From the NCBI RefSeq assembly GCF_000092105.1, contig NC_014148.1:1260001-1292000 (forward strand): a DNA stretch of 32,000 bases, in the 5' to 3' direction. Below, piece by piece: positions 4,798 through 22,199 of the stretch (position 1 is the stretch's first letter; every line of letters starts with the position of its first letter). A program made the translations under genes and the position numbers. A model generated the notes under the pieces. The model was not told the origin of the DNA and did no database searches. It saw only the letters and a program-made list of their open reading frames with translations. Source of the DNA: Planctopirus limnophila DSM 3776 (GTDB lineage Bacteria > Planctomycetota > Planctomycetia > Planctomycetales > Planctomycetaceae).

Positions 4798-6885
4798 ATG
4801 CCAATCCGATTAAATCGCCGCGAAACCTGGCTCAACACCGCAAAAGTGCTCCTTGGGCTCTTCGTGCTGATCGCCACTGGTGACCTCACTGCCAGCGCGG
4901 CCGATAAGAAGTCACTGATCTACGTGAAGGACAAGAACGGCCACACGACATCACTCCTTCAAAAGGTCGTCGTGACGAGCGGCAAGGCGACACTTGCCAG
5001 TTCACCGAAGGAACCGGGCGAACCGATCGAGCCGTGGGCGATTTTCTTCCGTATCAAAAACGAAGACGGCTCCACCAAAGCGGTCAATGGCCGCGTGCGT
5101 GTGGGCGATTCCGAAGGCAATCCTCTCGGCTGGATTGGCGAACAGGACGTGCGTGAGTGGGATACCCGGTTCGTCCTCGAACCGATTGACCCTCAGAAGG
5201 AACGCGCCTTCGAGTTGAACGTGACGGGCGGCGGCACAGCCCGCCAGAATGCGACGCCGGAAGGCAAACGCCGCTACGCCTTGATCACGCAAACTCCCGC
5301 CGCTGAAAAGGGAGACGACACGGAGTATCCGGTGGTCGTTTATGCGGGCAACGTGCAGGGTGTCGGTCAGCAGGGAACCTTGAACAAACAGCGGAACGAT
5401 TTAGAAAACGTCAAACTGGAACTGATGTTCGTCATCGAATCGACCGACTTCATGGTCGAGAAATACGACAATCGCCCGCTGTTCGACTATCTCAAGGATG
5501 CGATTCGCGAAACGGTCGATGTCATCCGCGAGGACAGTGGCCTGAAGGGCGCGATCAAACTGGGCTTTACCGAGTACCAGGACAATGTGCCGAAGGCAAA
5601 TTTCACCAGTCGCCTTACGTGCGACCTGACGGACAACTACGACCAGTTTCTTTCACGCTTGGACGTTTTGGCCGCAACCGAACTCAAGGACGATTTTCCG
5701 GATGATGGGCTTGCGGGGCTCAATGAAGCCGTTCAGAAAGCCACTTGGTCCGGCAATAGCGTGAAGCATGTGATTCTCCTAGGGTCAGCTTCATTCCAGC
5801 TTAGCGAACGTGGCCGAAATCCTCCGCAATCCGGAGGACGAATGAATTTGCTCGAACCCAAAACTCGCGGTTACAACAGCACCGGACTCTCTGTACCCCA
5901 ACTGATTAGCCGCGCGCGTCCGCAAGGGGGATCCGACTCCCGAGCACGAATCACTAAAACTTTACATGCCATGTTGCTTGGGCGGGATGTGATCAGAGAT
6001 CTGAAACTTGATGATGATCTGTTGCAACTATGTGAGACGATTGCCAATTCCAGTGATGATGGACTTGAACCGATTTTCACGATGCTCACGAATAGATTGG
6101 GCAAGGAGGCGGGAGTCAAAACGCTCGTTCTCCTTCACACAATCCAAGTCATCAAGAATCAGCGACAGTTAGCAGAGTCACAATACGGCCAACTCGCCAA
6201 AAACAATGGCGAAGCGGATGGCATCTACATGGCCGTCGAGCCCAGTGGCGCGAAGGTGACTGAGGCGGCCCGCGCACTATCGGCCAAGTTGAAGGAATCA
6301 TTCGTGGCGCTGGAGAGCGTGCGCGAAGGGAAAGGCTTGCCAGCTGCCTCAACCAACGAAATCTCGCAGCCACTCTACACACTCGTCGGAGCGGCGGCCG
6401 AGAAATTCAAGGACTCACCCGTATTAACCGGAACAGCCACCGTGCGCGATAAGCGGGGACGTGAAGTCGCCTTCAAGAAGGTCATGGTCTCCGAGCAGGA
6501 GTTGCGCCACGTGAAGAGTACCCTCGACGCCCTCTTCACAAAATTCAAATCGAAGAGCAGCAAGGCCGATCGACAGGACGTCGGCAGTATTCTCAACGAT
6601 TTGAAAGAGGTCCTCGCCGAAGCCGGTGCCGGGCAGGAATTGACGGCCGAGGTTAAGCTCAAGGATTTGATCTCGGACCTGCCGCTCAAGACCGCAGCAC
6701 TCGACACCTCTCCGGCAGACTTGGCCCTCATGACGACCGAGGCCTTCAAACAATGGCTCGAACGGATCGAAGCAGCCGTCTTCCGTATTGACGATCTGCT
6801 CACCAGCAAACAGGACTGGCTGACACTTTCGGAAAAAGCGGTCAATGAAAAGTTTACGTTTCTGCGACTCAGCGAACTTCCCTGA
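4798..6885 (+). CDS. Secreted vWA-like domain protein with a degenerate MIDAS
   Basis: AGGAG lies 7 nt upstream of the ATG, and the signal peptide reads LFVLIATGDLTASA|AD. The central region follows the von Willebrand A strand/helix pattern (LELMFVIESTDFM ... IKLGFTEYQD ... DDGLAGLNEAVQKA ... KHVILLGSAS). The DxSxS metal site is replaced by ESTDF. The C-terminal region is helical. Confidence 0.8.
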   Translation: MPIRLNRRETWLNTAKVLLGLFVLIATGDLTASAADKKSLIYVKDKNGHTTSLLQKVVVTSGKATLASSPKEPGEPIEPWAIFFRIKNEDGSTKAVNGRVRVGDSEGNPLGWIGEQDVREWDTRFVLEPIDPQKERAFELNVTGGGTARQNATPEGKRRYALITQTPAAEKGDDTEYPVVVYAGNVQGVGQQGTLNKQRNDLENVKLELMFVIESTDFMVEKYDNRPLFDYLKDAIRETVDVIREDSGLKGAIKLGFTEYQDNVPKANFTSRLTCDLTDNYDQFLSRLDVLAATELKDDFPDDGLAGLNEAVQKATWSGNSVKHVILLGSASFQLSERGRNPPQSGGRMNLLEPKTRGYNSTGLSVPQLISRARPQGGSDSRARITKTLHAMLLGRDVIRDLKLDDDLLQLCETIANSSDDGLEPIFTMLTNRLGKEAGVKTLVLLHTIQVIKNQRQLAESQYGQLAKNNGEADGIYMAVEPSGAKVTEAARALSAKLKESFVALESVREGKGLPAASTNEISQPLYTLVGAAAEKFKDSPVLTGTATVRDKRGREVAFKKVMVSEQELRHVKSTLDALFTKFKSKSSKADRQDVGSILNDLKEVLAEAGAGQELTAEVKLKDLISDLPLKTAALDTSPADLALMTTEAFKQWLERIEAAVFRIDDLLTSKQDWLTLSEKAVNEKFTFLRLSELP

Positions 6886-9977: not shown

Positions 9978-11525
9978 ATGCACTCCAAAAATCGACGACT
10001 GCAAACAGGACCATTGTTACTCCTGTTCTTGGCCCTGGCAGGATGGGGAATGCCTCGAACCGTCGCTCATGCCGCACCACCGGGCGAACTGTTCGAGTTG
10101 CCATTAATAGGGACCGCACCTGCTCAGACGTTGCGATTTCGCTTTTGCCCCGCCGGAACAATTCGGCCAGGCCAACCGACACGCGACGCTTCAGGCAGCT
10201 CCGCCAACGCGCTGCCCCCCATTTCCCTCCGTGAATTTTATCTGGGTGAGACAGAGGTCACGCTGGCTCAGTTCCGCGCAGTCCTGGGTGCACCGGGAAT
10301 GGCAGTCCTCAAGAAGGAAGCAGCGAAGTTTCAGGCCATGAACCCCCAGCTGTTCGATCTCATCCAACAGGGTGAATCGGAACCAGCCTTCTATGTCGGG
10401 CTGGAGGGTGCCGTTCAGTTCTGCCTTCGCGTACAAGCCGGCATCGACGAAGAGCGGATGAAACAGGCCGCACCGTCAATCGAAGCTCGACGGATCAGGT
10501 TGCCGTCGCATGTCGAATGGCAGTATGCCGCCCGGGCCATTGCCGACGCGGGTCAACAGTCGCGGTTACCTCACTTCAATCGCAATATCCCTTTCGCCCA
10601 GTTGTCTGCCGGTACGCAGGAAAAGTGCCGCGAAGTCTGGTCAAAACTGGGACGGACCGATCCCTTTGTTGGCTCGCAGGAACAGCTGCTTGGTCTCACA
10701 GCAGCAGTCGGACAGGAAGAGCAGGCCAAGGTCAAAGACATTCTGGCCGAGTGGTTCACGAAACTGCTGGGTGTCCCTGCTCGTAACGCCAGTGGATTGG
10801 GCGCCATCAGGCCTGTGGCCCAGGCTCAGGCCAATGCCTGGAACATTCACGATAGCCACGACAATCTGACCGAATGGGTGATCTGGGCAACAACTTCGGA
10901 TCGACGCGATGAACTTTGGCAATCGCTCGCCTCCAAAGTCGCGACCGGAGCTTCGCTGGATGGCCAGGGCGATCTCTTCCTCGCGGGTGGTTTCTTCGCT
11001 GAGCCCTATCACGGAGAGAACATTCTCTCCCATTTCACCCTGTGGGGCGGCCCGAAACTGACCGAGGGGGCACCACAGCCATTCGAATATGAATCCGGTT
11101 TGGTCGGAGAGTTTTCTCCAGGCTTTCGCGTGTTGATGGAGCGGAAAATTGCCTCAGACTGGCTGTTTGCCCTGCGACGAGGACTCTACGCTCAAGGCCA
11201 ATGGCAACCGTCGGCCCGAACTTACCTCGACGAGAGTCAGCGATTGTTGGATGAACTCGCCGACGCCAATCATCCCGGCATCGCAACCATCGAGTTTTAT
11301 CGCACTCTTCAAACGCTCGATTCAGGCGGGAAATCACGTGCCGCAAAGATGTTCGATCGTCTCGCCCAGGCGAAACCCGAAGCTCCAGCACGAGCAAAAC
11401 CCAACTACGCTGCGCTACTGGACGACACCCCCTCACCCGCTGCAACCGTCGAAGCCACTCCCGTCAACGACGACGCCCTCTTCTGGCAGACACTGTCGAT
11501 GGCTCAATCAGCCCGTCCCAATTAA
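9978..11525 (+). CDS. Exported FGE-sulfatase (SUMF1)-fold protein, divergent and probably non-catalytic
   Basis: Signal peptide LLLLFLALAGWGMPRTVAHA|A. FGE-family landmarks are present (FYLGETEVTLAQFRAVLG; RLPSHVEWQYAARA; NAWNIHDSHDNLTEWV; FSPGFRVLMER). There is a roughly 100-aa insertion and no CxxxxC catalytic pair. The C-terminal extension is low-complexity and helical. Confidence 0.8.
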   Translation: MHSKNRRLQTGPLLLLFLALAGWGMPRTVAHAAPPGELFELPLIGTAPAQTLRFRFCPAGTIRPGQPTRDASGSSANALPPISLREFYLGETEVTLAQFRAVLGAPGMAVLKKEAAKFQAMNPQLFDLIQQGESEPAFYVGLEGAVQFCLRVQAGIDEERMKQAAPSIEARRIRLPSHVEWQYAARAIADAGQQSRLPHFNRNIPFAQLSAGTQEKCREVWSKLGRTDPFVGSQEQLLGLTAAVGQEEQAKVKDILAEWFTKLLGVPARNASGLGAIRPVAQAQANAWNIHDSHDNLTEWVIWATTSDRRDELWQSLASKVATGASLDGQGDLFLAGGFFAEPYHGENILSHFTLWGGPKLTEGAPQPFEYESGLVGEFSPGFRVLMERKIASDWLFALRRGLYAQGQWQPSARTYLDESQRLLDELADANHPGIATIEFYRTLQTLDSGGKSRAAKMFDRLAQAKPEAPARAKPNYAALLDDTPSPAATVEATPVNDDALFWQTLSMAQSARPN

Positions 11526-11604
11526 CGGAATGTTTTATCGTCCCGTCAGCCCGTTGCACCACCCGCCGTATCACCCCGGTTACCAAAGAAATCAAAGAAG
11601 ACAG

Positions 11605-11636
11605 GGTGGCCCAGACGTCGCCTTGCACGTCTGGGT
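11605..11636 (+). repeat. 32-nt hairpin repeat GGTGGCCCAGACGT(C/G)GCCTTGCACGTCTGGGT, copy 1
   Basis: Perfect 9-bp stem CCCAGACGT/ACGTCTGGG (11610-11618 and 11627-11635). It lies about 85 nt after the stop of the 9978-11525 gene. It is 31/32 identical to the copy at 12976-13007. Confidence 0.85.
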
Positions 11637-11941
11637 ATACACACAGGAGCATTACGTGATTAGTCAGGCAGCATGCAACCGGTTATGAGTACTATATGTT
11701 ATTAAATTGGCAATTGTAATGACATTTTGGCATGCAGACTGAGTTCACGAGAATCTAACTTCGATTTTATATCGATTTGAGTTGAATGCGTGTGGAGTTC
11801 CGAAGTTAACGCGATTAGACAGAAAACGTCGGCAGATCGTGATAGCAACCTGGCGAGTATCTTGGATTTCTTGTGTGGTCCTAAATGATGCACTGGATTT
11901 TGATAGCTAGTATCGGAACGATGCTCAATGAGATATTGATC

Positions 11942-11969
11942 TTGTTCAGGCTCTCTTGTCTTTTATAAT
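11942..11969 (+). promoter_or_regulatory. Sigma70-like promoter candidate for the FGE paralogue (TTGTTC-N16-TATAAT)
   Basis: TTGTTC at 11942-11947 and TATAAT at 11964-11969 sit in an AT-rich leader about 35 nt upstream of the preferred ATG (12004). I do not know the promoter consensus for this phylum well. Confidence 0.25.
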
Positions 11970-12003
11970 AGTATTGATTTACAGCTTCACGATGAGGTGT
12001 GGT

Positions 12004-12900
12004 ATGAGCGAACGACAGTTTTATCTCTGGAATAGTGTGATTCTTGCCAATCTGATCTTTAGTGTGGTGTTAGTCGCTCCAGTGGACGCACAGACGTTGA
12101 CCACACCTTCCTCCCTTGAGTCCCCGTTCACAGCTGATGGAGCCAAAGCCGGTCAGGAGGCATGGGCCAAGCATCTGGGGAAGTCTGTTGTTGAGAAAAA
12201 TACAATCGGCATGGATCTGGTGTTGATTCCCCCAGGTAAATTTCGCTTGGGAAGTCCCCCCGGTGAAAATGGTCGTGATACCGACGAAAAACAGGTCGAC
12301 GTAACGCTCACCCAGCCCTTCCGGCTGGGCCGCACGGAAGTGACCCTGGGACAGTGGAGGCAGGTGATGGGAACCATTCCCTGGAACCGAGAAAACTTCA
12401 TCAAAAAAGGGCCAGACTATCCTGCGACATTTGTCAGCTGGGAGGATGCCCGGGCGTTTTGTGAGAAGTTGAGTCAGATAGAAGGCAAGACATATCTGTT
12501 ACCGACGGAAGCCCAGTGGGAGTGGAGTTGCCGGGGAGGCACGACAACCCGGTTCTCGATCCCCAATGAGAAGTATCTCACGGAATACGCATGGTTTAAT
12601 GATAATGCCGCCGACGAAAAGTATGCCCACCGCGTGGGCCTAAAGCGGCCCAATCCGTTTGGCCTGTCCGACATTCATGGGAACGCATGGGAATGGTGTC
12701 AGGATTGGTACGGAGAAAGATATTCCATAATTAGTTCGATCGACCCGTGTGGCCCATCGTCTGGGAGTGATCGTGTGATTCGCGGTGGGAGTTGGGACAG
12801 TATCACGAGGGGCATTCGCTCGGCTGAACGCGGCGGGGGCTCGCCAGACGCCGGGAGCTACCTCGTCGGTTTCCGTGTATCGAGGATTGAATTACCCTGA
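12004..12900 (+). CDS. Formylglycine-generating enzyme family (SUMF1/FGE-fold) protein, exported, lacking the catalytic Cys pair
   Basis: Canonical family motifs are present: MDLVLIPPGKFRLGSP, TEVTLGQWRQVMG, PATFVSWEDARAFCEKLS, LLPTEAQWEWSCRGG, NPFGLSDIHGNAWEWCQDWY, RVIRGGSW and GFRVSR. The track ORF starts at a TTG (11956). The ATG at 12004 is preferred because it follows GAGGTG and gives a clean signal peptide (LANLIFSVVLVAPVDA|Q). The ATG at 11992 is also possible. Confidence 0.9.
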   Translation: MSERQFYLWNSVILANLIFSVVLVAPVDAQTLTTPSSLESPFTADGAKAGQEAWAKHLGKSVVEKNTIGMDLVLIPPGKFRLGSPPGENGRDTDEKQVDVTLTQPFRLGRTEVTLGQWRQVMGTIPWNRENFIKKGPDYPATFVSWEDARAFCEKLSQIEGKTYLLPTEAQWEWSCRGGTTTRFSIPNEKYLTEYAWFNDNAADEKYAHRVGLKRPNPFGLSDIHGNAWEWCQDWYGERYSIISSIDPCGPSSGSDRVIRGGSWDSITRGIRSAERGGGSPDAGSYLVGFRVSRIELP

Positions 12901-12975
12901 GCCGCTTAAACCTTTTAACTTTTGAACTTTTTCTGGATTGCTGTTTTTGACTTGATAAATCCTGCCTTCGCGTGG

Positions 12976-13197
12976 GGTGGCCCAGACGTGGCCTTGCACG
13001 TCTGGGTGACGACAGTCACAAGAAACACTCTCCAAGCAGTTCAGCCACCTCACCAACTCCTCGATCACTTCAATCCCTACCCCTGATTTCCACCGGCCAG
13101 TATCATTGGTCGATGTGTCTCGATCGAGATTGATGGCCACCCAACACGCTTTTAAAGGCACAGCTGTGCCTGCCAATTCTGCCAACCCCTCGTATCC
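12976..13197 (+). repeat. Composite intergenic element, copy D (hairpin type 2 plus conserved body)
   Basis: It starts with the CCCAGACGT...ACGTCTGGG hairpin. It then shares these blocks with copies at 13767 and 15311: CAGCCACCTCACCAACTCCTCGATCACTTCAATCC, GGTCGATGTGTCTCGATCGAGATTGATGGC (with the perfect 12-bp palindrome TCTCGATCGAGA at 13118-13129) and CAATTCTGCCAAC. Confidence 0.8.
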
Positions 13198-13203
13198 AAA
13201 AAA

Positions 13204-13725
13204 CTACTTGGCGGGTGAATCCAATTGACGAATTCGTTCCAGGATGCGCAGCGGTTGCTCGCGACCGAATTCTTTTGGTGCATTGAATGCGGCAAACTTG
13301 CAAAACCGGACAAAAGCGGCCCGTTGAGCTGTGTTGTAAAGTTTCGCAAAGGAAATGTCGTCTCCTCTTGATCCGCGAATCAATCCCGAGAGGTCGAAGA
13401 GAAAAGCGTCATACATCAATCCATCTCGAATTCCCTCTTGAAGAACTGCGCGAAGGATCGCCGGCGAATAGAACTTTTTGGCAGCCGGGTTCATGAAGAA
13501 GACCGCATCTGTCCGGGCGAAGAGATGATCGACGGGCACACGGCGCCAGTCAGTCCGTTCAGCGGTCTTTGCCAAAGAGAGTTCGTGACAATCAAAACCG
13601 TAGCTCGCATGGAAGGCCGCTTCATACAATGTTGTTCCATCATGCAACTCGACCCCCGCGAACGCACCCTCGATGAAGCGGATCAGCCATTCCCGCAACG
13701 TCATCGACCGCGTCTCCATATCCAT
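13204..13725 (-). CDS. Hypothetical cytoplasmic protein (small immunity-like protein, family not identified)
   Basis: Only long ORF in this interval, with no signal peptide. The motif block VPVDHLFARTDAVFFMNPAAKKFYSPAILRAVL resembles small orphan immunity-type proteins, but this is an impression only. The track start at 13755 is GTG and lies 11 nt from the repeat hairpin. In-frame ATGs at 13725, 13719 and 13704 are more plausible, so the start is uncertain. Confidence 0.6.
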   Translation of the reverse strand: MDMETRSMTLREWLIRFIEGAFAGVELHDGTTLYEAAFHASYGFDCHELSLAKTAERTDWRRVPVDHLFARTDAVFFMNPAAKKFYSPAILRAVLQEGIRDGLMYDAFLFDLSGLIRGSRGDDISFAKLYNTAQRAAFVRFCKFAAFNAPKEFGREQPLRILERIRQLDSPAK

Positions 13726-13766
13726 CTTTCTGCGTTCAGCGCCAAAGTAAAACACTCACGCCCCGG

Positions 13767-13960
13767 GTGCCACTGCTGGCTTGCCAGCAGTGCTCCTCTG
13801 ATCCTCCAGCCAACTCAATTACATCTCCTATCTGACAATCTCCCACTCACTAGCTGCCACCAGCCATCTCAACTGGTCGATGTGTCTCGGTCAAGATTGA
13901 TGGCTTCTCTTCACGGTTCCTGAAACTACTGCGGGACCAGCCAGTTGCTTCACCCGCCGC
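13767..13960 (+). repeat. Composite intergenic element, copy A (hairpin type 1 plus conserved body)
   Basis: GTGCCACTGCTGGCTTGCCAGCAGTGCTCCT carries a perfect 10-bp stem, CACTGCTGGC (13771-13780) / GCCAGCAGTG (13783-13792). It is followed by ..GATCCTCCAGCCAACTCA.., CAGCCATCTCAACTGGTCGATGTGTCTCGGTCAAGATTGATGGC and ..CCAGCCAGTTGCTTCACC. Confidence 0.8.
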
Positions 13961-14010
13961 CAAGGTGACAACCCGATAATCAGTTCAGCACATTTATTCA
14001 TCATATCGAA

Positions 14011-14883
14011 TCAGGGGTCGGTGCGATCAAAATATGCCGTACTAAATCGAAAGCGAGGCGATCCCGTCGCAATCTCAAATCCCTCAATATATGTTGCGTC
14101 ACATGTCGCACCATAACTGGCGACAACACCGTCCGAAACACTGATCCCGGCAAGGTGAATACCAGAAATGCCAGATGCCCCGGCCAGTGAACTACACCAA
14201 ACTTCCTGCCGCCATACCAATTTCTTTGAATCAATATCAAAGCAAAAGATGCTGTAGGGAAATGCCCACGTACCGGCAACTGCCACAAAACATTTCGGCC
14301 CCTCTTTTGCAACAGCGAGAGTAAAAATTCCTGCTGCAGGGTTTACTTCACTCAAGTCCAAGGGCACAGTCATACCTTTCATTTGAACGAAAAGTTGATG
14401 CCCGACTTTTTCAACCGTGGTGTCAAGTGGATGGAAAAATCGACCGGTTCTCTGCCACCCGATTCTGGCAAGTTTCGCCGCACCTGCTTCTGTCTCAAGA
14501 TTTAACCTGTCCGAGAAGGAGCGGCCCCACCAATCTGGGAGAACGCAATGAAGTCGACCTTGTACGAAGCCTGAAAATGTAGATCCGCCGACGACTGACC
14601 CAATGAGATCCCTTGAGTTGCCATGACGTCGGCAGAGCTTCTCCCATCGAGCAAACAACTGTGCAGAAATGTCATCAGACGCTTCAAGATCATTTAATTC
14701 ATCCACACTGGACGATAACAGTACCTTGCTGGCTGCGTCAGGAAACGTGTCCCAATCGTTTTCTCCGATCGCCTTTGGGAATTGTGGCAACTCCTTGTCA
14801 CTGCAGACGGCTTTATTGCTAATACACGTCGCCGCAACAGAGATAAGGAGTATATACAGGATTGTATTACACGCTGATCTCAT
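14011..14883 (-). CDS. Hypothetical secreted protein (no recognisable domain)
   Basis: The ATG is preceded by AAGGAAGAG. The N-terminal signal peptide reads ILYILLISVAATCISNKAVC. The beta-rich-looking C-terminal half has Gly/aromatic repeats. No motif was recognised. Confidence 0.7.
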   Translation of the reverse strand: MRSACNTILYILLISVAATCISNKAVCSDKELPQFPKAIGENDWDTFPDAASKVLLSSSVDELNDLEASDDISAQLFARWEKLCRRHGNSRDLIGSVVGGSTFSGFVQGRLHCVLPDWWGRSFSDRLNLETEAGAAKLARIGWQRTGRFFHPLDTTVEKVGHQLFVQMKGMTVPLDLSEVNPAAGIFTLAVAKEGPKCFVAVAGTWAFPYSIFCFDIDSKKLVWRQEVWCSSLAGASGISGIHLAGISVSDGVVASYGATCDATYIEGFEIATGSPRFRFSTAYFDRTDP

Positions 14884-14934
14884 TAACTCTTCCTTTCATG
14901 ATCGATCCCGCTTGCGAATGGAAACCCGCCCAGT

Positions 14935-15003
14935 GTGCCACTGCTGGCTTGCCAGCAGTGCTCCTCGGATCCTCTAACCAACTCATCCACCTCACCGATC
15001 AGG
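14935..15003 (+). repeat. Composite intergenic element, copy C (truncated: hairpin type 1 plus first conserved block only)
   Basis: GTGTGCCACTGCTGGCTTGCCAGCAGTGCTCCTCGGATCCTC is identical over about 42 nt to copy B. It continues ..CCACCTCACCGATCA, and similarity is then lost. Confidence 0.75.
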
Positions 15004-15027
15004 CGACAGGTGTATCACATTCGCCGG

Positions 15028-15258
15028 CTAATGTGACACAGTTGGCGTGAAAATAGCCGCAATCGCACCTAAAATTAATGCAACAAGCGACACAACAACA
15101 CATACCTTCAGAACTCTTCTCCAAAACATAGCTTTACAACCCTTTAAAGCACATTTTCGCAGCATGCTTCTACAAAGCGGGAAAGTTATAGTGTAAGTAG
15201 AGTCTCTGACCTGTTGAGAATCAATTCTAATCATGAGTTGCTGTGGTGATTCGGCCAT
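15028..15258 (-). CDS. Possible small tail-anchored membrane protein (76 aa)
   Basis: ATG ORF in an AT-rich spacer between two repeat copies. A C-terminal hydrophobic helix is present (VVVSLVALILGAIAAIF). No Shine-Dalgarno sequence was seen, so this may be spurious. Confidence 0.3.
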   Translation of the reverse strand: MAESPQQLMIRIDSQQVRDSTYTITFPLCRSMLRKCALKGCKAMFWRRVLKVCVVVSLVALILGAIAAIFTPTVSH

Positions 15259-15310
15259 TTTGTGGCTGGATTATCCTGCTCTAACACGACGACATGGCGA
15301 TGCACTCTGT

Positions 15311-15510
15311 GTGCCACTGCTGGCTTGCCAGCAGTGCTCCTCGGATCCTCCAGCCAGCTCAACCACTTCACCAACCCCACGATCACTACAATACCCGCAC
15401 CGTGGGTGCCATCAGCCATCTCCATTGTCGATGTGTCTCAATCGAGATTGGTGGCTGCCCATCACGGTTTCTAAAACCACTACTGGGCCAGTCAATTCTG
15501 CCACCACTAC
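15311..15510 (+). repeat. Composite intergenic element, copy B (hairpin type 1 plus conserved body)
   Basis: Hairpin CACTGCTGGC (15315-15324) / GCCAGCAGTG (15327-15336). It is followed by CAGCCAGCTCAACCACTTCACCAACCCCACGATCACTACAATACC, GTCGATGTGTCTCAATCGAGATTGGTGGC and CAATTCTGCCACC. Confidence 0.8.
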
Positions 15511-15529
15511 AAACGTCGTTTGCAGGCCC

Positions 15530-16564
15530 CTATTTCACTTCCATCTTGGGGAACGGCACTTGATCCACCAGTCGATCGGCGCGACTGGTAACATCCGTCG
15601 GCTCGCCCACGACAAAAATCAATGTCTGGCGAAGCGTGGCATGATCTGGCCAATCGGTCTCAATACCTGGCAGGAGGATATTGAGTTGATGCTGGGCCAG
15701 GTCGAGTTTGTTGAACACCATCTGCGTCTGATGCGGTGATTGATCAGTTTCTTTTTCGCCGAAAACGACAGCCACTGCTAACTTGTCACCAAACGCCATG
15801 GCCCATCCGCCCAGATCCTGCGGCTTCCAGAACTTATAGCCATCTTCGGTGAACGTTCCCCTGGCAGATCGCTGATAGGGCAGGGCGGTACGCCGCAGGG
15901 GAATCCAGTTCTCGAAGTAAGACGTCAACGAGCCTCGCCACAGTTGGTCAGCAACGAGAACTGTCCTTTCTGATGCCGACGCGTCCCACTGCTTCCCATC
16001 CCACGTTCTCACAACCACGTCGCGCAGTTCCCAGGGTCTGCGTAGCACGGTGCGTTCCAGTTTGAGGCTGCCATCCTCAAGAACCTCGTAGCGGCAAGTG
16101 GTCTCAAAATCGGGACGCCCATGGCGGTCAAGTTCCGCATAGAACCAGTGCGTGATCTGCGACTTGAAAACCAGCGTGCCCATGTGGCCGGTTTTCGGCG
16201 ACTCCAACGCATCGCACGTGAACTTTCCATGGAAACAGCCTTCCATCGTCACGTTCGCTCTGACGTCCTTGTCACCGGAATCATGAGGCGAACCCAGATA
16301 GCGTGAATTCCAATACGTCCACTGAATCACACGATCTGTCGTCTCCCCCTGGAACGAATCGCCCACCAGATTAGTCTCAGGTGCGAGATCAACATCGTAA
16401 AGACCACAAATGGCCCCTCCTTTGTTGAAGACATATTGAAAGCGTCGATTGGCCGCCGTCCTGATACTCAGCGTGCGAGTGTTCGCATCGTAGGAGGAAA
16501 CAGCTTCCTGCGCGATCAAGGGCGTAGCCACACCAAAACCCGCCACCACAACCACGACGACCAT
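15530..16564 (-). CDS. Hypothetical secreted protein (about 344 aa, no recognisable domain)
   Basis: Long ORF. The internal ATG at 16564 gives a typical signal peptide (MVVVVVVAGFGVATPLIAQEA), whereas the 31-aa Cys-rich extension from the track start (16657) looks non-genic. The mature part is aromatic- and Arg-rich and beta-like. Confidence 0.75.
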   Translation of the reverse strand: MVVVVVVAGFGVATPLIAQEAVSSYDANTRTLSIRTAANRRFQYVFNKGGAICGLYDVDLAPETNLVGDSFQGETTDRVIQWTYWNSRYLGSPHDSGDKDVRANVTMEGCFHGKFTCDALESPKTGHMGTLVFKSQITHWFYAELDRHGRPDFETTCRYEVLEDGSLKLERTVLRRPWELRDVVVRTWDGKQWDASASERTVLVADQLWRGSLTSYFENWIPLRRTALPYQRSARGTFTEDGYKFWKPQDLGGWAMAFGDKLAVAVVFGEKETDQSPHQTQMVFNKLDLAQHQLNILLPGIETDWPDHATLRQTLIFVVGEPTDVTSRADRLVDQVPFPKMEVK

Positions 16565-16681
16565 CCGGAAGATATTTAACAAGATTGAAACCTCCCGATC
16601 CTCGCAAACACACTTAACCGTACTGTCACATTCGACGAGACAGAAAAAACATTTCACTTGTTACTCCCGTTCGATAAACTC

Positions 16682-17488
16682 TCATGTCAAATCGGAGACT
16701 CTTGCGTCACGAAGTGTTGTATATGTGAATGGCTTAAAGTCAATCTTGTACTCCGATTCACTCCTGAATCCACGAAACAACTTCACGTCAGGATTCTGCC
16801 CATGTAGAATCAGGCATAACATGTCAATATCTTGGACTGTCATTTGCGCTCCGAAGTAGACAGCCGTTAATGCGGATGAGTTATATGTATATGCAGTTCC
16901 TACTTCCTTGTGGATTACTCGCCACTCTCTTTCGTACGCCCAATCAGCGGATTTTCTGCAAAACAGATCAAGTACTTGCTGGTAATCCTCGTCTACCATT
17001 AGGCGAGACACACTTACCTCCGGAATGTCTGTGCCATAGGTGACCCGGTGAATTTTAATAAAGGGCTCAAAGTCAGTACTAAATTCTAAACAAAACCCAC
17101 GATGCTGCCCTCCGTAGTGTGACCACATCAGTAGGTTGTTGTTAATCTCGGAAAAGCAGCTAATTCCATGCGAGGTGTTGAATTCGTTACATTTTTTTTC
17201 AACGAGAAATCTAGTGGATGCCACCAATTGTTCTTTCAGGGTTGGAATCGGTGACAATTCCAATTGCTGCTTGATTTCTTTTGGCGTATCTGGACTTGAA
17301 ATAAGCTTCGCTAACACCGCGCAAACCTCAATGTCTGTTGGTGCCTTAAATCGCGGCGTCAGGGCACAATCATACGGATCATTGAAACTAGATGGAGGTC
17401 CAAAATATAGAGATTGTTGTTTTAGATTCTGAATTGCTCGGAGTGTAAATGGTTCATACTTGTAAAGAGTCGTTGGTCGTTCACTCAT
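16682..17488 (-). CDS. DUF2971 family protein
   Basis: Family landmarks are present: LYKYEPF..AIQNLKQQSLYFGPPSSFNDPYD, LLMWSHYGGQHRGFCLEF and WAYEREWRV. The track start at 17509 is TTG; the ATG at 17488 is preceded by AAGGG. The gene is markedly AT-rich compared with neighbouring genes. Confidence 0.85.
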   Translation of the reverse strand: MSERPTTLYKYEPFTLRAIQNLKQQSLYFGPPSSFNDPYDCALTPRFKAPTDIEVCAVLAKLISSPDTPKEIKQQLELSPIPTLKEQLVASTRFLVEKKCNEFNTSHGISCFSEINNNLLMWSHYGGQHRGFCLEFSTDFEPFIKIHRVTYGTDIPEVSVSRLMVDEDYQQVLDLFCRKSADWAYEREWRVIHKEVGTAYTYNSSALTAVYFGAQMTVQDIDMLCLILHGQNPDVKLFRGFRSESEYKIDFKPFTYTTLRDARVSDLT

Positions 17489-17762
17489 TACGCTGCCCTT
17501 AGATAGCAATTCAGTTGGTAGACAAAAAGTAAACTGAGTGTGAACGTCGGCCTATCAATTTGAGGCTATCAGTAAATTCAAGATAGCCAAGCCAAGATCG
17601 ACTCTTGAACACTGCAATAAATAGCCAGTCAACCTATATGATCAACACCATCCTTCAACTGTCGACTTCTATTGAACCTTCCGATGGACCCTCGACAGAC
17701 TCATGAGGTTCTTCGCTGCCTTCGCGTCTTCGCGAGATCCAGATCATCGCCACGCACAGACC

Positions 17763-18860
17763 CTACGGCGCGACGACCAGCCGCCGGATTTCCATTTGCG
17801 GCACCGTAAGCTTCAAGATCATCTGCAAGGTCGAGCCGACATCGGCCGTCTCATCCGTATCGAACTCGACGGGTTCGGTCATTGAGGCCATGCCGACGAC
17901 GTTGCCATATCGATCGAGGATCGGCCCGCCGCTTGATCCAATGGCGTAGTCCGCACTGATCGACATCCATTTTTCAGGCCGCTCATTTTTGCGACTGCCA
18001 ATCTGCTGATAACGCGTCACATAACCTTGTGTGAACATGAAATGGGCGGATCCCGGATGCGTCAGCGCTCCCACCCAGGCACCGACGGCAGCCGATTTCC
18101 CCAAGGGAATGGGCGTCAGATCTTTCGCCGTAATCCGGGCAATCGCCACATCCGCCCGGCGATCGGCAGCGAGAATTTCCGTCACCGGATAGACATCACC
18201 CTGCAGGGTCATCACAGCAAAGCATTCCAGCTCGGTCGTATCGAACACATGATAGTTGGTGACAATCACACCATCGGCAGCCAGCACCCAGGCGGTGGCA
18301 TTGCTGACATAATGAAACCGCGGTGGTTGCGTGCGAGTCTGCTGTAAGCTGCCAATCAGCAGGGTAGAAGTAGCGACCATCCGGTAGACTTCTTCGGGCG
18401 AAAGGACGGCCGTTCGAGGCGGTGGCAATTCGAGTGTGACCTGCCGCCGCTCAAGCTGCTTTTTCATATCGCGAGAAGAGAGACACTGGCCCCCTTTCGC
18501 CAGCAAAATCGCCTTGCGCTCGAAGTTCCGGGAAAACTCTTCATCATTAATAAACACCGGCTCATCATTGGCAACCACTGGCCGATTGCCAGCCTCAGCC
18601 GCAGCCTCTGCTGTCTGTGCAACAAGCTTCTGGCCCTGCAAAACTTCCTGCTCACAGAGAACTGAGGTTCTCGGATTTTTGGCAACTTGCCGTTCAGAAG
18701 GAGAGCGCGTCTCAGCCTCGGTGTTCCATGCCGGTGTCGGGAGAGGCGCCGGGGAGTATTTCAGCAGGTGGGAAAATCCCCAGCTTCCAGCCGCAACGAA
18801 TACGATCGCAGCAGCGAGACAAGCAACTCGACTCCAGTGCCTTTCCAGCCAGTGCGTCAT
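17763..18860 (-). CDS. Membrane-anchored trypsin-like (S1 family, DegP/HtrA-like core without PDZ) serine protease
   Basis: N-terminal TM helix (VACLAAAIVFVAAGSWGF). The catalytic triad context is intact: VTNYHVF (His), RADVAIARI (Asp), GSSGGPILDRYGNVVGM (Ser). The ATG directly abuts the upstream gene's TAA. Confidence 0.9.
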   Translation of the reverse strand: MTHWLERHWSRVACLAAAIVFVAAGSWGFSHLLKYSPAPLPTPAWNTEAETRSPSERQVAKNPRTSVLCEQEVLQGQKLVAQTAEAAAEAGNRPVVANDEPVFINDEEFSRNFERKAILLAKGGQCLSSRDMKKQLERRQVTLELPPPRTAVLSPEEVYRMVATSTLLIGSLQQTRTQPPRFHYVSNATAWVLAADGVIVTNYHVFDTTELECFAVMTLQGDVYPVTEILAADRRADVAIARITAKDLTPIPLGKSAAVGAWVGALTHPGSAHFMFTQGYVTRYQQIGSRKNERPEKWMSISADYAIGSSGGPILDRYGNVVGMASMTEPVEFDTDETADVGSTLQMILKLTVPQMEIRRLVVAP

Positions 18861-19850
18861 TTATCGCTCCAGGCGTGAACGACGATCCCGCCACTCAATG
18901 GTCGATTTTCCCACGTACTTATCCAGAAAGGCCAGAATATGGTCTTCCGTCTTCAGCTTGCGACCCAAAAGTCCAGTACCTCGCAGCCCACCCTCATAGG
19001 TTTCCAGATAAATGTGATCCCTTTTGTCGGGATTCAGCTTTTCAGCCAGCTTTTTGGCAGCACCTTTATCAGCCGTATCTTTGGAACCGACGCCAATCAA
19101 GACCGGCAAGCCCAGAATTCGCACGGCTGTTTCTGACTGTGCCGTATTCATCCCCTGAATGGAGCCTTCTGGAGAGAGCAGCACCAGGGCCCGCACATCC
19201 TGCCCGCGAGGCGTTCTCGCTGCGACAGTGGGGGCATCATCCCAGGGAATCTTCGACCAGTCGAGTTCCGTATAAGCTGTGGCAATGGCTGTCGAAAAAT
19301 CGGCACCAAGAATAGCCAGCTTGCTCATATTCAGCTTTTCGGCCATGTGCTCGTCGTACAGAAACTTTTTCACTGCTTCGAGATCGCCGGGAATCATGGC
19401 CTGATAATCGCGAGGCTTGAGTTGAGGTGCATTGTTCTTGGTGGCTCCAGGGGCCACCGCTGGCCCAGGAACCAGGGGAGTCTCACCATGCCCGCGCAAG
19501 TCAACCGTCACGACGGCATAACCGGCATCATTCAGAAATGGTGCCAGCGAGCTGTTGAAATTCTGCCGTGAACCTTTCTTGCCGTGCAGCAAGATCACAA
19601 CGGGTGTGTCTTTGCCTTTTTTCCCTGCAAAGTAAGAAATTTTCAGTGGGATTCCGTCTTTGGTCACCAGCGTCTTGTCTTCAAACCGGCTCACCGCAGC
19701 GGCTGGCTTGGTCGCCTGGGCATACAACGATTCTGGAGCCCATACACTCACACACGTGGCCAGAACCGCCAGTGCCAGCGATTGCCCCCAAGCTCGGCAA
19801 CGACCACACAACGATGTTTGCGACAGTCTATCAATCATCAGACGGAGCAT
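18861..19850 (-). CDS. Exported alpha/beta-hydrolase-fold protein (dienelactone-hydrolase-like), possibly lacking the Ser nucleophile
   Basis: GAAGGAAC lies upstream of the ATG, and a signal peptide is present (ALAVLATCVSVWAPESLYA). The fold pattern is TPVVILLHGKKGSRQNF, GYAVVTVDLRGHGE and LPVLIGVGSKDT. The nucleophile-elbow region reads ILGADFS rather than GxSxG. Confidence 0.85.
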   Translation of the reverse strand: MLRLMIDRLSQTSLCGRCRAWGQSLALAVLATCVSVWAPESLYAQATKPAAAVSRFEDKTLVTKDGIPLKISYFAGKKGKDTPVVILLHGKKGSRQNFNSSLAPFLNDAGYAVVTVDLRGHGETPLVPGPAVAPGATKNNAPQLKPRDYQAMIPGDLEAVKKFLYDEHMAEKLNMSKLAILGADFSTAIATAYTELDWSKIPWDDAPTVAARTPRGQDVRALVLLSPEGSIQGMNTAQSETAVRILGLPVLIGVGSKDTADKGAAKKLAEKLNPDKRDHIYLETYEGGLRGTGLLGRKLKTEDHILAFLDKYVGKSTIEWRDRRSRLER

Positions 19851-20179
19851 TGCTGTTCCTTCTAGAACGCCTTCCGGGCCAATCAGGTGCAGGTCAACAG
19901 GCGAGAGCCATCCGCTTGCTCAGATGTTCTCAATTGTGATCTCAAGTGTGGTCTCAATCGAGGTTTCCGCTGCCCGGAAAATCGCGTTCAATAACTGTGG
20001 TTCATCCAGATGTAACGATCTCTTGAAGTCTAAACCTGAACATGGCCAAGTTCAATTCGTGAATTCTCACTCACAGGCCAATTCTTCAAATCCATCCTCG
20101 TACGATCCATACAGCTTTCCCGACAGTCAGAAAGCGATGAACGTGCCGGATGTCAGCCGACTGCCAAACTTCGAGTCCG

Positions 20180-21277
20180 TTATTCCTCGTACAGGCGTGT
20201 GAAGATCTCACCCCGGGAATTGATCCAGCCGCGATACAGGCCCTCGCAATTGCGCGAAGTTGTCCATTGACCCTGACTGTTGAGCACAATGGCCGCACCT
20301 TCTCCGCCAGCCGCCTTCAACTGGCGATTGATCACTTCCTGAGCCGCCTGCTGAACATTGAGGCCGCGATACTTGATCTGCGAAACGATCTCTTTCGAGA
20401 CGCCATAGCGAATAAAAAATTCTCCATGCCCGGTGCAGGAGACAGCTGCAGCGCCATCCTCCGCGTATGTCCCCGCACCAATAATGGGCGAATCTCCCAC
20501 TCGGCCGAACATCTTGTTCGTCATACCGCCGGTCGATGTTCCGGCTGCTAACTGACCCTGGCTGTTGCGAGCCACCGCTCCGACTGTTCCAAAATAAGTG
20601 CTCGATTTGGGCTCCAGATCAGCTCGGCCGCCGTTTTTCTTTTCTTCAGCCCACACCCGGCTGATATCTTTCCACCGGCTCTCTGTCCAGAAGTAGGCGG
20701 GATCGACAATCTCCAGACCCTGCTGTGTCGAAAAAACTTCCGCACCCCGGCCGATCATCATCACGTGCTTTGATTTTTCCATCACAGCCCGTGCAGCAGA
20801 AATCGGATTCCGCACAATGGTCACACTGGCAACGGCACCGGCCCGCTTGGTCGTCCCCTCCATAATCGAAGCATCAAGTTCATTACGGCCTTCATGAGTA
20901 AAGACCGCCCCTCGACCGGCATTAAAGTTCGGATCATCCTCCAGCACTCGAATCGCGGCTTCCAGGCCATCCAGAGGCAACGCGTTGGGCTCTTTGAGTC
21001 GCTTGGCTCCTGCTTCAAGAGCAGCCTTCAGCCCGGCTCGAATCTTCTTCTCCAACTCGGGAGTCATGTCCTTTTTGTCAACGCCCGTGCCGCCATGCAC
21101 ACCCAGCACCACATCTTCGATAATCAGATCACTGCCGACGTTATCCAATTGGATCTCCTGTCCCCGGACCACCCTCAACCCGAATTCGCTGCACCCCGCC
21201 AGCACACCCAGCACCAGGCACCATTTGAGCCAGACACGTCGAATACAGTTCCCACCACCAGCATGTGATCCCCGCAT
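20180..21277 (-). CDS. Isoaspartyl peptidase / L-asparaginase (plant-type, Ntn-hydrolase), probable lipoprotein
   Basis: Family motifs: VHGGTG, FNAGRGAVFTHEGRNELDASIM, autoprocessing site FGTVGAVA (Thr nucleophile) and STGGMTNKMFGRVGDSPIIGAGTYA. The ATG at 21277 gives a lipobox-type signal (LVLGVLAGC). The longer track ORF (to 21460) runs into an intergenic repeat and is rejected. Confidence 0.92.
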   Translation of the reverse strand: MRGSHAGGGNCIRRVWLKWCLVLGVLAGCSEFGLRVVRGQEIQLDNVGSDLIIEDVVLGVHGGTGVDKKDMTPELEKKIRAGLKAALEAGAKRLKEPNALPLDGLEAAIRVLEDDPNFNAGRGAVFTHEGRNELDASIMEGTTKRAGAVASVTIVRNPISAARAVMEKSKHVMMIGRGAEVFSTQQGLEIVDPAYFWTESRWKDISRVWAEEKKNGGRADLEPKSSTYFGTVGAVARNSQGQLAAGTSTGGMTNKMFGRVGDSPIIGAGTYAEDGAAAVSCTGHGEFFIRYGVSKEIVSQIKYRGLNVQQAAQEVINRQLKAAGGEGAAIVLNSQGQWTTSRNCEGLYRGWINSRGEIFTRLYEE

Positions 21278-21422
21278 CGTCAATGACTCCATTTGAAGGC
21301 TGAACCTGGATTCGCTGCACCACTCCGCCCCGGCGGCAGCAGCCAGGGCATCTTTCTCACGATTTGAACTATCGCAAAAATCGCCAGGAAATTCATCAAC
21401 CCTCTGTGAATTGAGCCCATGG

Positions 21423-21464
21423 GCCCCTACCAACGAGCCGGAAGCGTCAGCGACGGGCATTCAG
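21423..21464 (+). repeat. 43-nt direct repeat, left copy (core ACGAGCCGGAAGCGTCAGCGACGGGCATTCAG)
   Basis: The 32-nt core (21433-21464) is 31/32 identical to 23137-23168, with weaker similarity extending about 10 nt upstream (GCCCC..A..A). Confidence 0.8.
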
Positions 21465-21486
21465 TAGGGTCCGCTGTGCGGACCAT
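21465..21486 (+). repeat. REP-like palindromic unit TAGGGTCCGCTGTGCGGACCAT
   Basis: 7-bp stem GGTCCGC/GCGGACC with loop TGT. It immediately follows the 43-nt repeat. An identical 22-mer occurs at 29320-29341. Confidence 0.85.
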
Positions 21487-21647
21487 AACCCGCTGTTCGT
21501 CACAGATTGCCCGTCCCGATCGACCTTCGTGCCGGAAACAGACGAGGTTCGTTACCCGAAGAACACCTCTGCAAATGCCCTCCTGCAGCGTTACCACCAC
21601 GATAGAGCACAGTATTTCAACCGAAGCCACCCTGCGAAACAATACGA

Positions 21648-21989
21648 CTAATGATCGAAACGATCATCTTTCTTCAAGGTGCTAAGAAACTCTTCCCAGC
21701 AATTGACTACTCCATCAAACAATTCATCGGGGAAGTCCGTAGTACTGCGATTCTCCTTGAATCCCTCGAACGCTGATGAACAATTTCGGAAGAATACTCC
21801 AAAAGTATCTTTATCAAGTTCGTCGAGAACGATGAATTCAAAACCCTGTCGCAATGGCGAATATGCTTCCTCAAGAATCTCTTGTTCGGAAGAGTTAAGT
21901 CGTTGCCATGTGAATTCGACGATTATCCAAAATGCGACTGATCCAGATGTCCAAATGTCTTTTTCAGTAATATGAATTGTGCCTGACAT
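21648..21989 (-). CDS. Hypothetical small acidic cytoplasmic protein (113 aa, immunity-like)
   Basis: The ATG is preceded by GGAGTG. There is no signal peptide, and the protein is acidic and aromatic-rich. The coding region is AT-rich. No domain was recognised. Confidence 0.6.
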   Translation of the reverse strand: MSGTIHITEKDIWTSGSVAFWIIVEFTWQRLNSSEQEILEEAYSPLRQGFEFIVLDELDKDTFGVFFRNCSSAFEGFKENRSTTDFPDELFDGVVNCWEEFLSTLKKDDRFDH

Positions 21990-22047
21990 TTTTCACTCCA
22001 CGACTAACGCTCTTGATTAGAGAGCATTAGGCAACCCTGCCGGGACC

Positions 22048-22077
22048 CCACTGCTGGCTTGCCCAGCAGTGCTCCTC
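22048..22077 (+). repeat. Hairpin type 1 module, solitary and slightly degenerate copy
   Basis: CCACTGCTGGCTTGCCCAGCAGTGCTCCT has a one-base bulge relative to the other copies. It lies in the spacer between the 22200-23048 and 21648-21989 genes. Confidence 0.7.
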
Positions 22078-22199
22078 CCAATAACAAAGAGGGCCGACCC
22101 ACATTCAATTCCACCAAATCATGGCAAATGGCCTCTTACCGTACTAGCGAAATCTGAAGCTCCCTCGCCATTCGATCACAAATTACCGCCAACTCATTC

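Follow-up and report, generated by a model that had tools for sequence, protein, structure and literature searches.

A REP-bounded composite repeat follows the genes of a strain-variable array in Planctopirus limnophila

A repeat of typically ~195 bp punctuates a run of minus-strand genes in Planctopirus limnophila DSM 3776, within a stretch of 32,000 nucleotides (NC_014148.1, positions 1,260,001 to 1,292,000 of the forward strand) that spans Plim_1003 to Plim_1012 and is referred to below as the window. Repeat finding and alignment yield three full copies of approximately 190–212 bp each (A, B, and D) and one truncated copy (C), all in a single orientation and each directly downstream of one minus-strand open reading frame (ORF; Table 1), which bears out the description given in a first-pass annotation of this DNA. 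In the repeat unit, a core of ~140 nt separates a degenerate repetitive extragenic palindromic (REP) hairpin from an intact, inverted one, and the feet of both hairpins point outward. We regard it as fairly probable—at roughly 0.6—that this is a composite akin to REP doublets forming hairpins (REPINs) and bacterial interspersed mosaic elements (BIMEs), marking and probably mediating the modular loss, and perhaps the gain, of accessory genes. What is new is the genus-specific conserved core together with the arrangement of one element per gene in a strain-variable array; the hairpins themselves are already known.

Judged by their sequence, both hairpin types are REPs already described for the REP-associated tyrosine transposase (RAYT) system—an HUH Y1 transposase system—of Planctomycetaceae. 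The canonical hairpin, CACTGCTGGCTTGCCAGCAGTG (22 nt), is found at window positions 13771, 14939, and 15315, whereas another hairpin, GGGTGGCCCAGACGTGGCCTTGCACGTCTGGGT, terminates copy D, and its twin follows a plus-strand gene at 11604–11636. The perfect terminal hairpin previously ascribed to all copies is accordingly shared by A, B, and C but not by D. The canonical hairpin has a 9-bp stem, a 5-nt loop, and the foot G(G/T)GTGC, the P. limnophila 22-mer being drawn out to a 10-bp stem with a 2-nt loop; the D-type hairpin has a 10-bp stem and the foot GGTGG. Both are short palindromes in which a stem-loop is preceded by a conserved unpaired 5′ foot, as in REPs. The first-pass annotation did not recognize the repeat as a described element, but both hairpin types have been tabulated as REPs flanking Planctomycetaceae RAYT genes: GGTGCCACTGCTGGCTTG(C/T)CCAGCAGTG flanks the subclass 2.2 TnpA_REP (RAYT) ADY58460.1, listed under the code PbraA01, and GTGGCCCAGACGTGGCTTTGCACGTCTGGG flanks the P. 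limnophila RAYT ADG66729.1, likewise of subclass 2.2 (Quentin et al. 2018, PMC6006769, Additional file 2, Table S1). The canonical hairpin matches its tabulated counterpart exactly in the 23-mer form, and the D-type is close to GTGGCCCAGACGTGGCTTTGCACGTCTGGG; a cognate RAYT is assigned to each hairpin through this literature table only. The code PbraA01 presumably denotes Planctomyces (now Rubinisphaera) brasiliensis.

At least 120 metagenome contigs carry the canonical hairpin, usually as inverted doublets approximately 22 nt apart. Among the matches listed (loci L008–L127), on which the metagenome figures rest, the dominant form is the 23-mer CACTGCTGGCTTGCCCAGCAGTG with a CTTG(C/T) loop and mostly with the foot GGGTGC (124 of 161 hairpin variants), and stem variants are compensated, e.g., CACGGTTGG/CCAACCGTG. 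Forward-then-reverse neighbors have a spacer of 6–51 nt in 43 of 49 pairs, with a mode at 22–23 nt; close pairs in the opposite, reverse-then-forward arrangement are absent from the same matches. Such inverted forward/reverse doublets represent REPIN architecture as defined by Bertels & Rainey 2011 (PMC3116915), and REPs and REPINs are mobilized by RAYTs (PMC3116915; PMC6006769; Di Nocera et al. 2013, PMC3733652). The composite shares the polarity of the doublets and ends at the feet. A match to a mobile element with terminal inverted repeats, such as a miniature inverted-repeat transposable element, had been named in advance as evidence against the original interpretation; what is found of this is the bounding of the unit by inverted REPs, i.e., REPIN architecture. 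Pfam assigns 134 ORFs near the metagenome hairpins to ordinary chromosomal genes, plasmid and phage collections contain no match to the composite or to the consensus doublet, and the hairpin occurs in only nine contigs of IMG/VR. The three canonical REP sites that lie outside the array in the sampled Planctopirus DNA are all located between called genes; a statistic on the gene context of the hairpins is not relied on, because our own ORF calls over-predict in GC-rich DNA (86% "coding"). Rfam returns only sub-threshold miRNA-precursor hairpin matches for the metagenome doublets. Some metagenome loci (L018, L055, L061, L074, L083, L124, and L126; L014, L016, L075, and L097) have the REP centered in conserved inverted repeats of larger size, such as TATAGCAGTTCTCGAAAGT…REP…AACTTTCGAGAA… and …ATGCGCAATCAAGAGAGTGAGATCGG…REP…CACTTGTTTGAACGCGCAT, which may be further composite elements built on the canonical REP.

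The limits of the composite were defined by using homologous copies from P. ephydatiae (L004), P. hydrillae (L007), the metagenome-assembled genomes (MAGs) L128 and JAIXUU (L129 and L143, from a single assembly), and the Logan assemblies L145 and L146. Across seven copies, column identity amounts to 0.73–0.91 within the unit and to 0.14–0.43 just beyond both hairpin feet. Since homology ends exactly at the two REP feet—both outward feet read GGTGC or GGTGG—the composite is a discrete unit. Alignment with the copies of other species reveals that the CAATTCTGCCA block is what remains, after decay, of a second hairpin in inverted orientation: P. hydrillae and L128 keep an intact GGTGGCACTGC(T/C)GGCTTGCCCAGCAGTGG where CAATTCTGCCA sits, inverted with respect to the distal hairpin. 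A consensus fold computed with RNAalifold pairs both ends of the unit; its covariation term is positive, with no covariation in the core. In P. limnophila, copies B and C have a perfect 42-nt direct repeat in common (15309–15350 and 14933–14974), the truncated form of copy C recurs in strain L146, and copy D—judged against L143—has lost the canonical distal REP and ~100 nt through a deletion of roughly 150 nt. A block TCACCAAC..CGATCACT..CAAT, formerly listed as common to the copies, is present in B and D and in those two only. In L007 (17600–17670) and L128 (15225–15295), (A/G)GTGGCAC occurs three times directly past the distal REP at intervals of ~17–18 nt, and behind it lies a degenerate form of TGACACCC (GTGGCACCAGCCATTGAGTGGCACTCGGCATTAAGTGGCACCCGACCTTGAATGACACCC); the motifs look like repeated REP feet devoid of a stem.

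The paralogous P. limnophila copies are 57–74% identical and hence as diverged as copies from different species, which indicates that they are not recent duplicates. The shared central block of 29 nt reported at first pass, GTCGATGTGTCTCNNTCNAGATTGNTGGC, is genuine, with three occurrences against none expected in shuffled sequence. Its designation as an old, selectively maintained module is not supported: the form …GAGACACATCGAC is specific to P. limnophila, and other genomes read GAT(C/T)AATC(G/A)AC at this position, including the positional orthologue of copy A in P. hydrillae (A′), which argues against deep conservation of the palindrome. The possibility that the core itself is made of decayed REP copies was considered and rejected, local alignments being at shuffle level. 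A 137-nt core profile was searched in roughly 0.9 Mb of DNA, well over 100 kb of it from Planctopirus, and locates the core at this locus only, with copies in P. ephydatiae, P. hydrillae, the two MAGs, and Logan strains. In more distant relatives, the 350-aa gene that precedes the array (73–78% protein identity) is followed neither by the hairpin nor by the core, and copy A is missing in L143, where 57 unrelated nucleotides take its place. Scanning a genome collection that does not contain the source genome with the central block gave one chance match, in a Paceibacterota MAG.

Downstream of the conserved Trypsin_2 and 350-aa genes, the gene content of the array differs in every genome examined. 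Read on the gene strand, P. limnophila has the 350-aa gene, copy B, the 76-aa gene, copy C, the 290-aa gene, copy A, the DUF6714 gene, and copy D, followed by the convergent junction, the FGE-sulfatase gene, and Plim_1003. In P. hydrillae, the 350-aa gene is followed by a solo REP, the 290-aa gene, a composite, and the convergent junction; in L128, a composite directly connects the 350-aa gene to the convergent junction; and in P. ephydatiae, a MIP gene and a composite lie between the 350-aa gene and a tRNA-Arg gene. MAG JAIXUU (L129 and L143) displays the 350-aa gene, a REP, a 151-aa gene, a composite, 100 nt, a D-type REP, and a partial core and, further along, the 290-aa gene without a composite, the DUF6714 gene, a composite, 100 nt, a D-type REP, the convergent junction, and Plim_1003, while strain L146 has a 163-aa gene, a composite, a 71-aa gene, a truncated copy, and the 290-aa gene. 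The pattern of one gene followed by one element, first noticed in P. limnophila, therefore recurs in other strains with other genes, and, taking all genomes together, at least seven unrelated genes directly precede a copy. The GC content at third codon positions (GC3) is low in several array genes, exemplified by the 76-aa (0.35), 290-aa (0.45), 151-aa (0.46), and DUF2971 (0.43) genes, compared with 0.63 and 0.62 for the 350-aa and trypsin genes of the backbone. Pfam finds no domain in most array genes. A search of 5.8 billion protein clusters retrieved just two full-length relatives for the 290-aa protein (P. limnophila and P. hydrillae), and partial copies of its gene are located in MAG JAIXUU (L143) and strain L146. 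A single homologue (75% identity) of the 76-aa ORF emerged from 1.84 billion representatives, at the same array position in another strain.

Differences between these genomes repeatedly break at REPs. In L128, one REP takes the place of a REP, 88 nt, the 290-aa gene, 57 nt, and a second REP in P. hydrillae; to its left it keeps the flank of the first REP, and to its right that of the second. The same flank logic applies to JAIXUU, in which one D-type REP with intact outer flanks corresponds to a REP, 320 nt, the FGE-sulfatase gene, 75 nt, and a REP in P. limnophila (11604–13007). P. limnophila and L146 are homologous from within the proximal REP of copy B onward and differ in the gene upstream, and the 76-aa gene sits between the perfect 42-nt direct repeats of distal core and REP. 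With the breakpoints of gene-sized differences at hairpins, the term "cassette-like" used at first pass is fair. Because three lineages carry the 290-aa gene, and because L145 has the FGE gene and homologous flanks without D-type REPs, the L128 and JAIXUU differences are most simply read as deletions between direct REPs. A second, small variable slot, between the HNH_repeat and asparaginase genes, behaves similarly: wherever a variable ORFan occurs in it, so does a canonical REP. The ORFan following this REP encodes 113 aa, 91 aa, or, on the other strand, 133 aa depending on the genome, and P. ephydatiae has neither REP nor ORFan. In L128, the slot contains a REP, ~150 nt, and an inverted REP, the core of which is unrelated to the array core.

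In a plausible scenario, a REP doublet located behind a run of co-directional genes would have given rise to the composite, which would since have been copied, together with gene modules, within this one strain-variable array and thus have come to flank every accessory gene; the gene-proximal hairpin has decayed in P. limnophila. As direct repeats able to form hairpins, the copies could serve as crossover points, with the crossover being accomplished by RecA, by slippage, or by a RAYT acting on two direct REPs; a RAYT cutting two direct REPs at the same position would leave exactly one REP behind. Gene gain might proceed as the reverse reaction or, once DNA has passed from one strain to another, by homologous recombination via flanking copies. 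At the mRNA level, the distal REP may form a stable 3′ stem-loop that protects the end or attenuates transcription, by analogy with the REPs of E. coli, which stabilize 3′ ends.

A number of findings weigh against a REPIN/BIME-type composite that mediates gene loss and gain. The two REPs are separated by ~140 nt in the composite compared with ~22 nt in the common doublets, and whole-unit folding is no better than that of shuffled sequences (z = −0.8 to −1.9); on account of the long spacer and the shuffle-level folding, the composite is not a typical REPIN hairpin, in that it lacks the short spacer and the single hairpin formed by the whole unit. Core copies were found solely at this locus in the sampled DNA, which gives no sign of mobility of the composite as a unit. 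Table S1 of PMC6006769 lists no P. limnophila RAYT for the canonical hairpin, and a crude scan for HUH and Y motifs detected no RAYT candidate in the window or any locus examined. Both clean intergenome differences read as deletions, and no insertion event was caught. Finally, the three P. limnophila copies resemble each other more closely in the central block than in the remainder of the unit, a similarity that suggests gene conversion among the copies or lineage-specific constraint.

The pattern of one gene per element in one orientation, with strain-variable content and at least seven different genes preceding the composite, recalls a dedicated gene-cassette system with integron-like logic. 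In such a system, the REP or the composite would be the recombination site of a RAYT/HUH enzyme or of another recombinase, which would excise circular modules of a gene plus its site and insert them at a resident site, building an array. The ORFan-like nature of the genes, several with low GC3, would suit cassettes; the intergenome differences leave exactly one site, as would be expected from HUH cleavage of two direct sites; and the second slot also couples a REP with a variable ORFan. We nevertheless consider such a system unlikely, since Pfam searches of the larger flanking ORFs and of the relatives' neighbors found no integrase or recombinase in the window or in neighboring loci, loss of ancestral genes best accounts for both clean differences, none of the cassette genes turned up at another locus, and elsewhere the same REPs seem to be ordinary dispersed repeats. 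The attC core sites of the integron model that the first-pass annotation had put up for testing are not there either: none of the four spacers contains a pair of R″ (RYYYAAC) and R′ (GTTRRRY) core sites at 57–141 bp, nor was an integrase found among the larger window ORFs flanking the array. It is similarly doubtful that the REP–core–REP unit is a portable recombination site through which single-gene cassettes are both lost and gained, possibly by RAYT/HUH action on direct REPs; were this true, the array would represent integron-like shuffling based on REP/RAYT rather than on IntI/attC.

Selection of the element at gene ends as a functional RNA or DNA module—a stabilizer in the 3′ untranslated region, a terminator, an insulator, a small RNA, or a regulator site at TCTCGATCGAGA—seems no more probable than a dedicated cassette system. 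The location immediately 3′ of each ORF, the terminal copy that is always found at the convergent junction, the perfect terminal hairpins, the strikingly similar central block of the three P. limnophila copies, and the known effect of REPs in E. coli are all compatible with such a role. However, Rfam yields nothing in the window at the gathering threshold or even at E ≤ 1, the consensus fold is without covariation support, and the hairpins are not followed by a T-run; scanning for sigma-70 promoters and intrinsic terminators gave counts at shuffle level and none at the hairpins. Moreover, the central palindrome differs in orthologous copies, copy A is dispensable in MAG JAIXUU, and both orientations relative to genes are seen among the REPs. 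Plain local segmental duplication that left the repeats as relics and was followed by gene replacement, the hairpins having no special role, would explain the restriction of the core to this locus in the sampled DNA as well as the duplication of a larger block (REP, 100 nt, D-type REP) within the JAIXUU array. This explanation is quite improbable in view of homology that stops exactly at the REP feet in seven of seven copies, the unrelatedness of the genes between the copies, and three independent intergenome differences with breakpoints in REPs. A small protein gene can be dismissed almost entirely, be it the plus-strand VDVSRSRLMA frame or the gene-strand ME(M/I/L)A… ORF. Plus-strand frames are open in copy B, a similar peptide is common to B, A, and D, and a 39-aa ORF was called over the P. 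ephydatiae copy, but a stop codon directly follows VD in four of four copies from other genomes, the gene-strand ORF is interrupted by a stop or a frameshift in three of seven copies, and a protein search with the element-derived peptide came back empty. These in-frame stops and frameshifts rule out a coding reading of the element and uphold the non-coding character favored at first pass, when the VDVS(R/Q)SRL(M/V)A frame had been noticed.

The REPIN/BIME-type composite favored here shares with REPs and REPINs hairpins that match RAYT-adjacent ones, a conserved 5′ foot, co-varying stems, an extragenic location, feet-outward doublets, and a REP-bounded unit. It departs from REPINs by a conserved core of ~140 nt instead of a spacer of ~20 nt, the whole not being one hairpin; in addition, the canonical REP of P. 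limnophila is one base shorter (22-mer), and the composite is confined to one locus in the sampled DNA, where it alternates with genes rather than being scattered or in tandem. BIMEs of E. coli are mosaics of inverted REPs with conserved linker motifs, as in RIB and RIP elements. Like them, the composite combines inverted REPs with a conserved non-REP linker and resides at 3′ ends and between co-directional genes; its sequence is unrelated, its far longer linker is limited to a single genus and a single locus, and no IHF or gyrase site was identified in it. Integron arrays and clusters of attC sites lacking an integrase (CALINs) resemble the array in having one gene per site, a single orientation, atypical ORFan cargo, hairpin-capable sites, and strain-variable content, whereas the array has a REP–core–REP architecture without IntI or R″/R′ core sites, and its events read as deletions. 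The element works somewhat like cassette punctuation but is not an integron. Neisserial intergenic mosaic elements are RS units bounded by dRS3, and Acinetobacter plasmids carry pdif modules. In both, short repeats able to form inverted pairs delimit variable modules, intergenic or of a single gene, and act as recombination points, as they may here; the repeat families and enzymes (IS110-like Piv and XerC/D, respectively) are others, and no link to such an enzyme is evident at this locus.

The benefit of REPs and RAYTs to the host is still debated, and at this locus REP hairpins mark exactly where the presence or absence of single genes changes between closely related strains. The conserved ~200-bp module found behind each accessory gene seems to have developed from a REP doublet. 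Should the hairpins bring about gene gain in addition to loss, REP/RAYT systems would have to be counted, along with integrons and pdif modules, among the organizers of gene cassettes. If there is no gain, the locus would still be a clear case of REP-mediated genome plasticity in a phylum in which such repeats have barely been described. Planctopirus is a genetically tractable genus.

Table 1. Positions of the repeat copies, solitary REPs, and genes in the window, unless another locus is given.
Feature	Position	Strand	Remarks
Plim_1003	9978–11525	+	exact protein match
Solo D-type REP	11604–11636	+	79 nt past the Plim_1003 stop; direct-repeat partner of 12975–13007
Segment bounded by direct D-type REPs	11637–13007	+	1371 bp: spacer, FGE-sulfatase gene, 75 nt, one REP
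FGE-sulfatase gene	11956–12900		inside segment 11637–13007
Copy D, full composite	12975–13186	−	after DUF6714 gene; proximal remnant 13157–13186, core, D-type REP 12975–13007
Central block	13109–13137, 13876–13904, 15427–15455	+	palindrome TCTCGATCGAGA
Plim_1005, DUF6714 gene	13204–13725	−	Pfam
Copy A, full composite	13765–13955	−	after Plim_1006; proximal degenerate REP 13926–13955, core, distal REP 13765–13792
Plim_1006, 290-aa ORFan	14011–14883	−	signal-peptide-like N-terminus; GC3 0.45
Copy C, truncated	14933–15006	−	after 76-aa gene; last ~45 nt of core and distal REP 14933–14960
76-aa ORF, tail-anchored	15028–15258	−	GC3 0.35
Copy B, full composite	15309–15505	−	after 350-aa gene; on the gene strand, proximal degenerate REP 15477–15505, core 15337–15476, distal intact REP with foot 15309–15336
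Conserved 350-aa backbone gene	15530–16564	−	precedes array in five genomes; two ORFs in L129
Plim_1012	20180–21460	−	exact protein match
Solo canonical REP, 23-mer form	22049–22071	+	between HNH_repeat gene and 113-aa ORFan 21654–21992
Second variable slot	window 21654–22199; L007 9037–9631; L128 9228–9829; L129 6091–6764; L004 9670–10000		between HNH_repeat and asparaginase genes

The six perfect REP hairpins of the window (11604–22071) have the same plus-strand orientation whatever the direction of the neighboring gene, which could reflect a replication-strand bias, six being too small a number to judge. Short-read Planctopirus assemblies (L002, L003, L005, and L146) break exactly within REP hairpins, and REP-flanked genes are consequently stranded on isolated 1-kb contigs; the Logan contig for Plim_1006 covers window positions 13764–14962. 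The 350-aa gene of JAIXUU was called as two ORFs of 232 and 89 aa (L129, 12519–13625), reflecting a frameshift or an assembly error. At 16682–17509 of the window lies the DUF2971 gene, with a GC content of 0.43 compared with a window mean of 0.54 and with no REP or composite on either side; its position is occupied by a 458-aa HEAT-repeat gene in P. ephydatiae, P. hydrillae, and L129, and by neither gene in L128. The terminal composite of P. ephydatiae abuts the opposite-strand tRNA-Arg(CCG) gene (L004, 17707–17782), where synteny with P. limnophila stops; no tRNA was found in the window.

Other short repeats accompany the REPs in this region. After the asparaginase gene of the window (21436–21485), GGAAGCGTCAGCGACGG, which resembles hairpins listed for the class 3 TnpA_Y1 ADG69454.1, and a GTAG-tagged REP, GTAGGGTCCGCTGTGCGGACC, lie side by side, and clusters of these two motifs fill a spacer of ~1 kb in L007 (1200–2000) and L128 (3820–4600). 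Approximately eight tandem 18-nt units (GGCTGTCAGGACGCWCTG) are located at 4850–4990 of L128, either ahead of a DUF1559 (SBP_bac_10) gene or inside its beginning.

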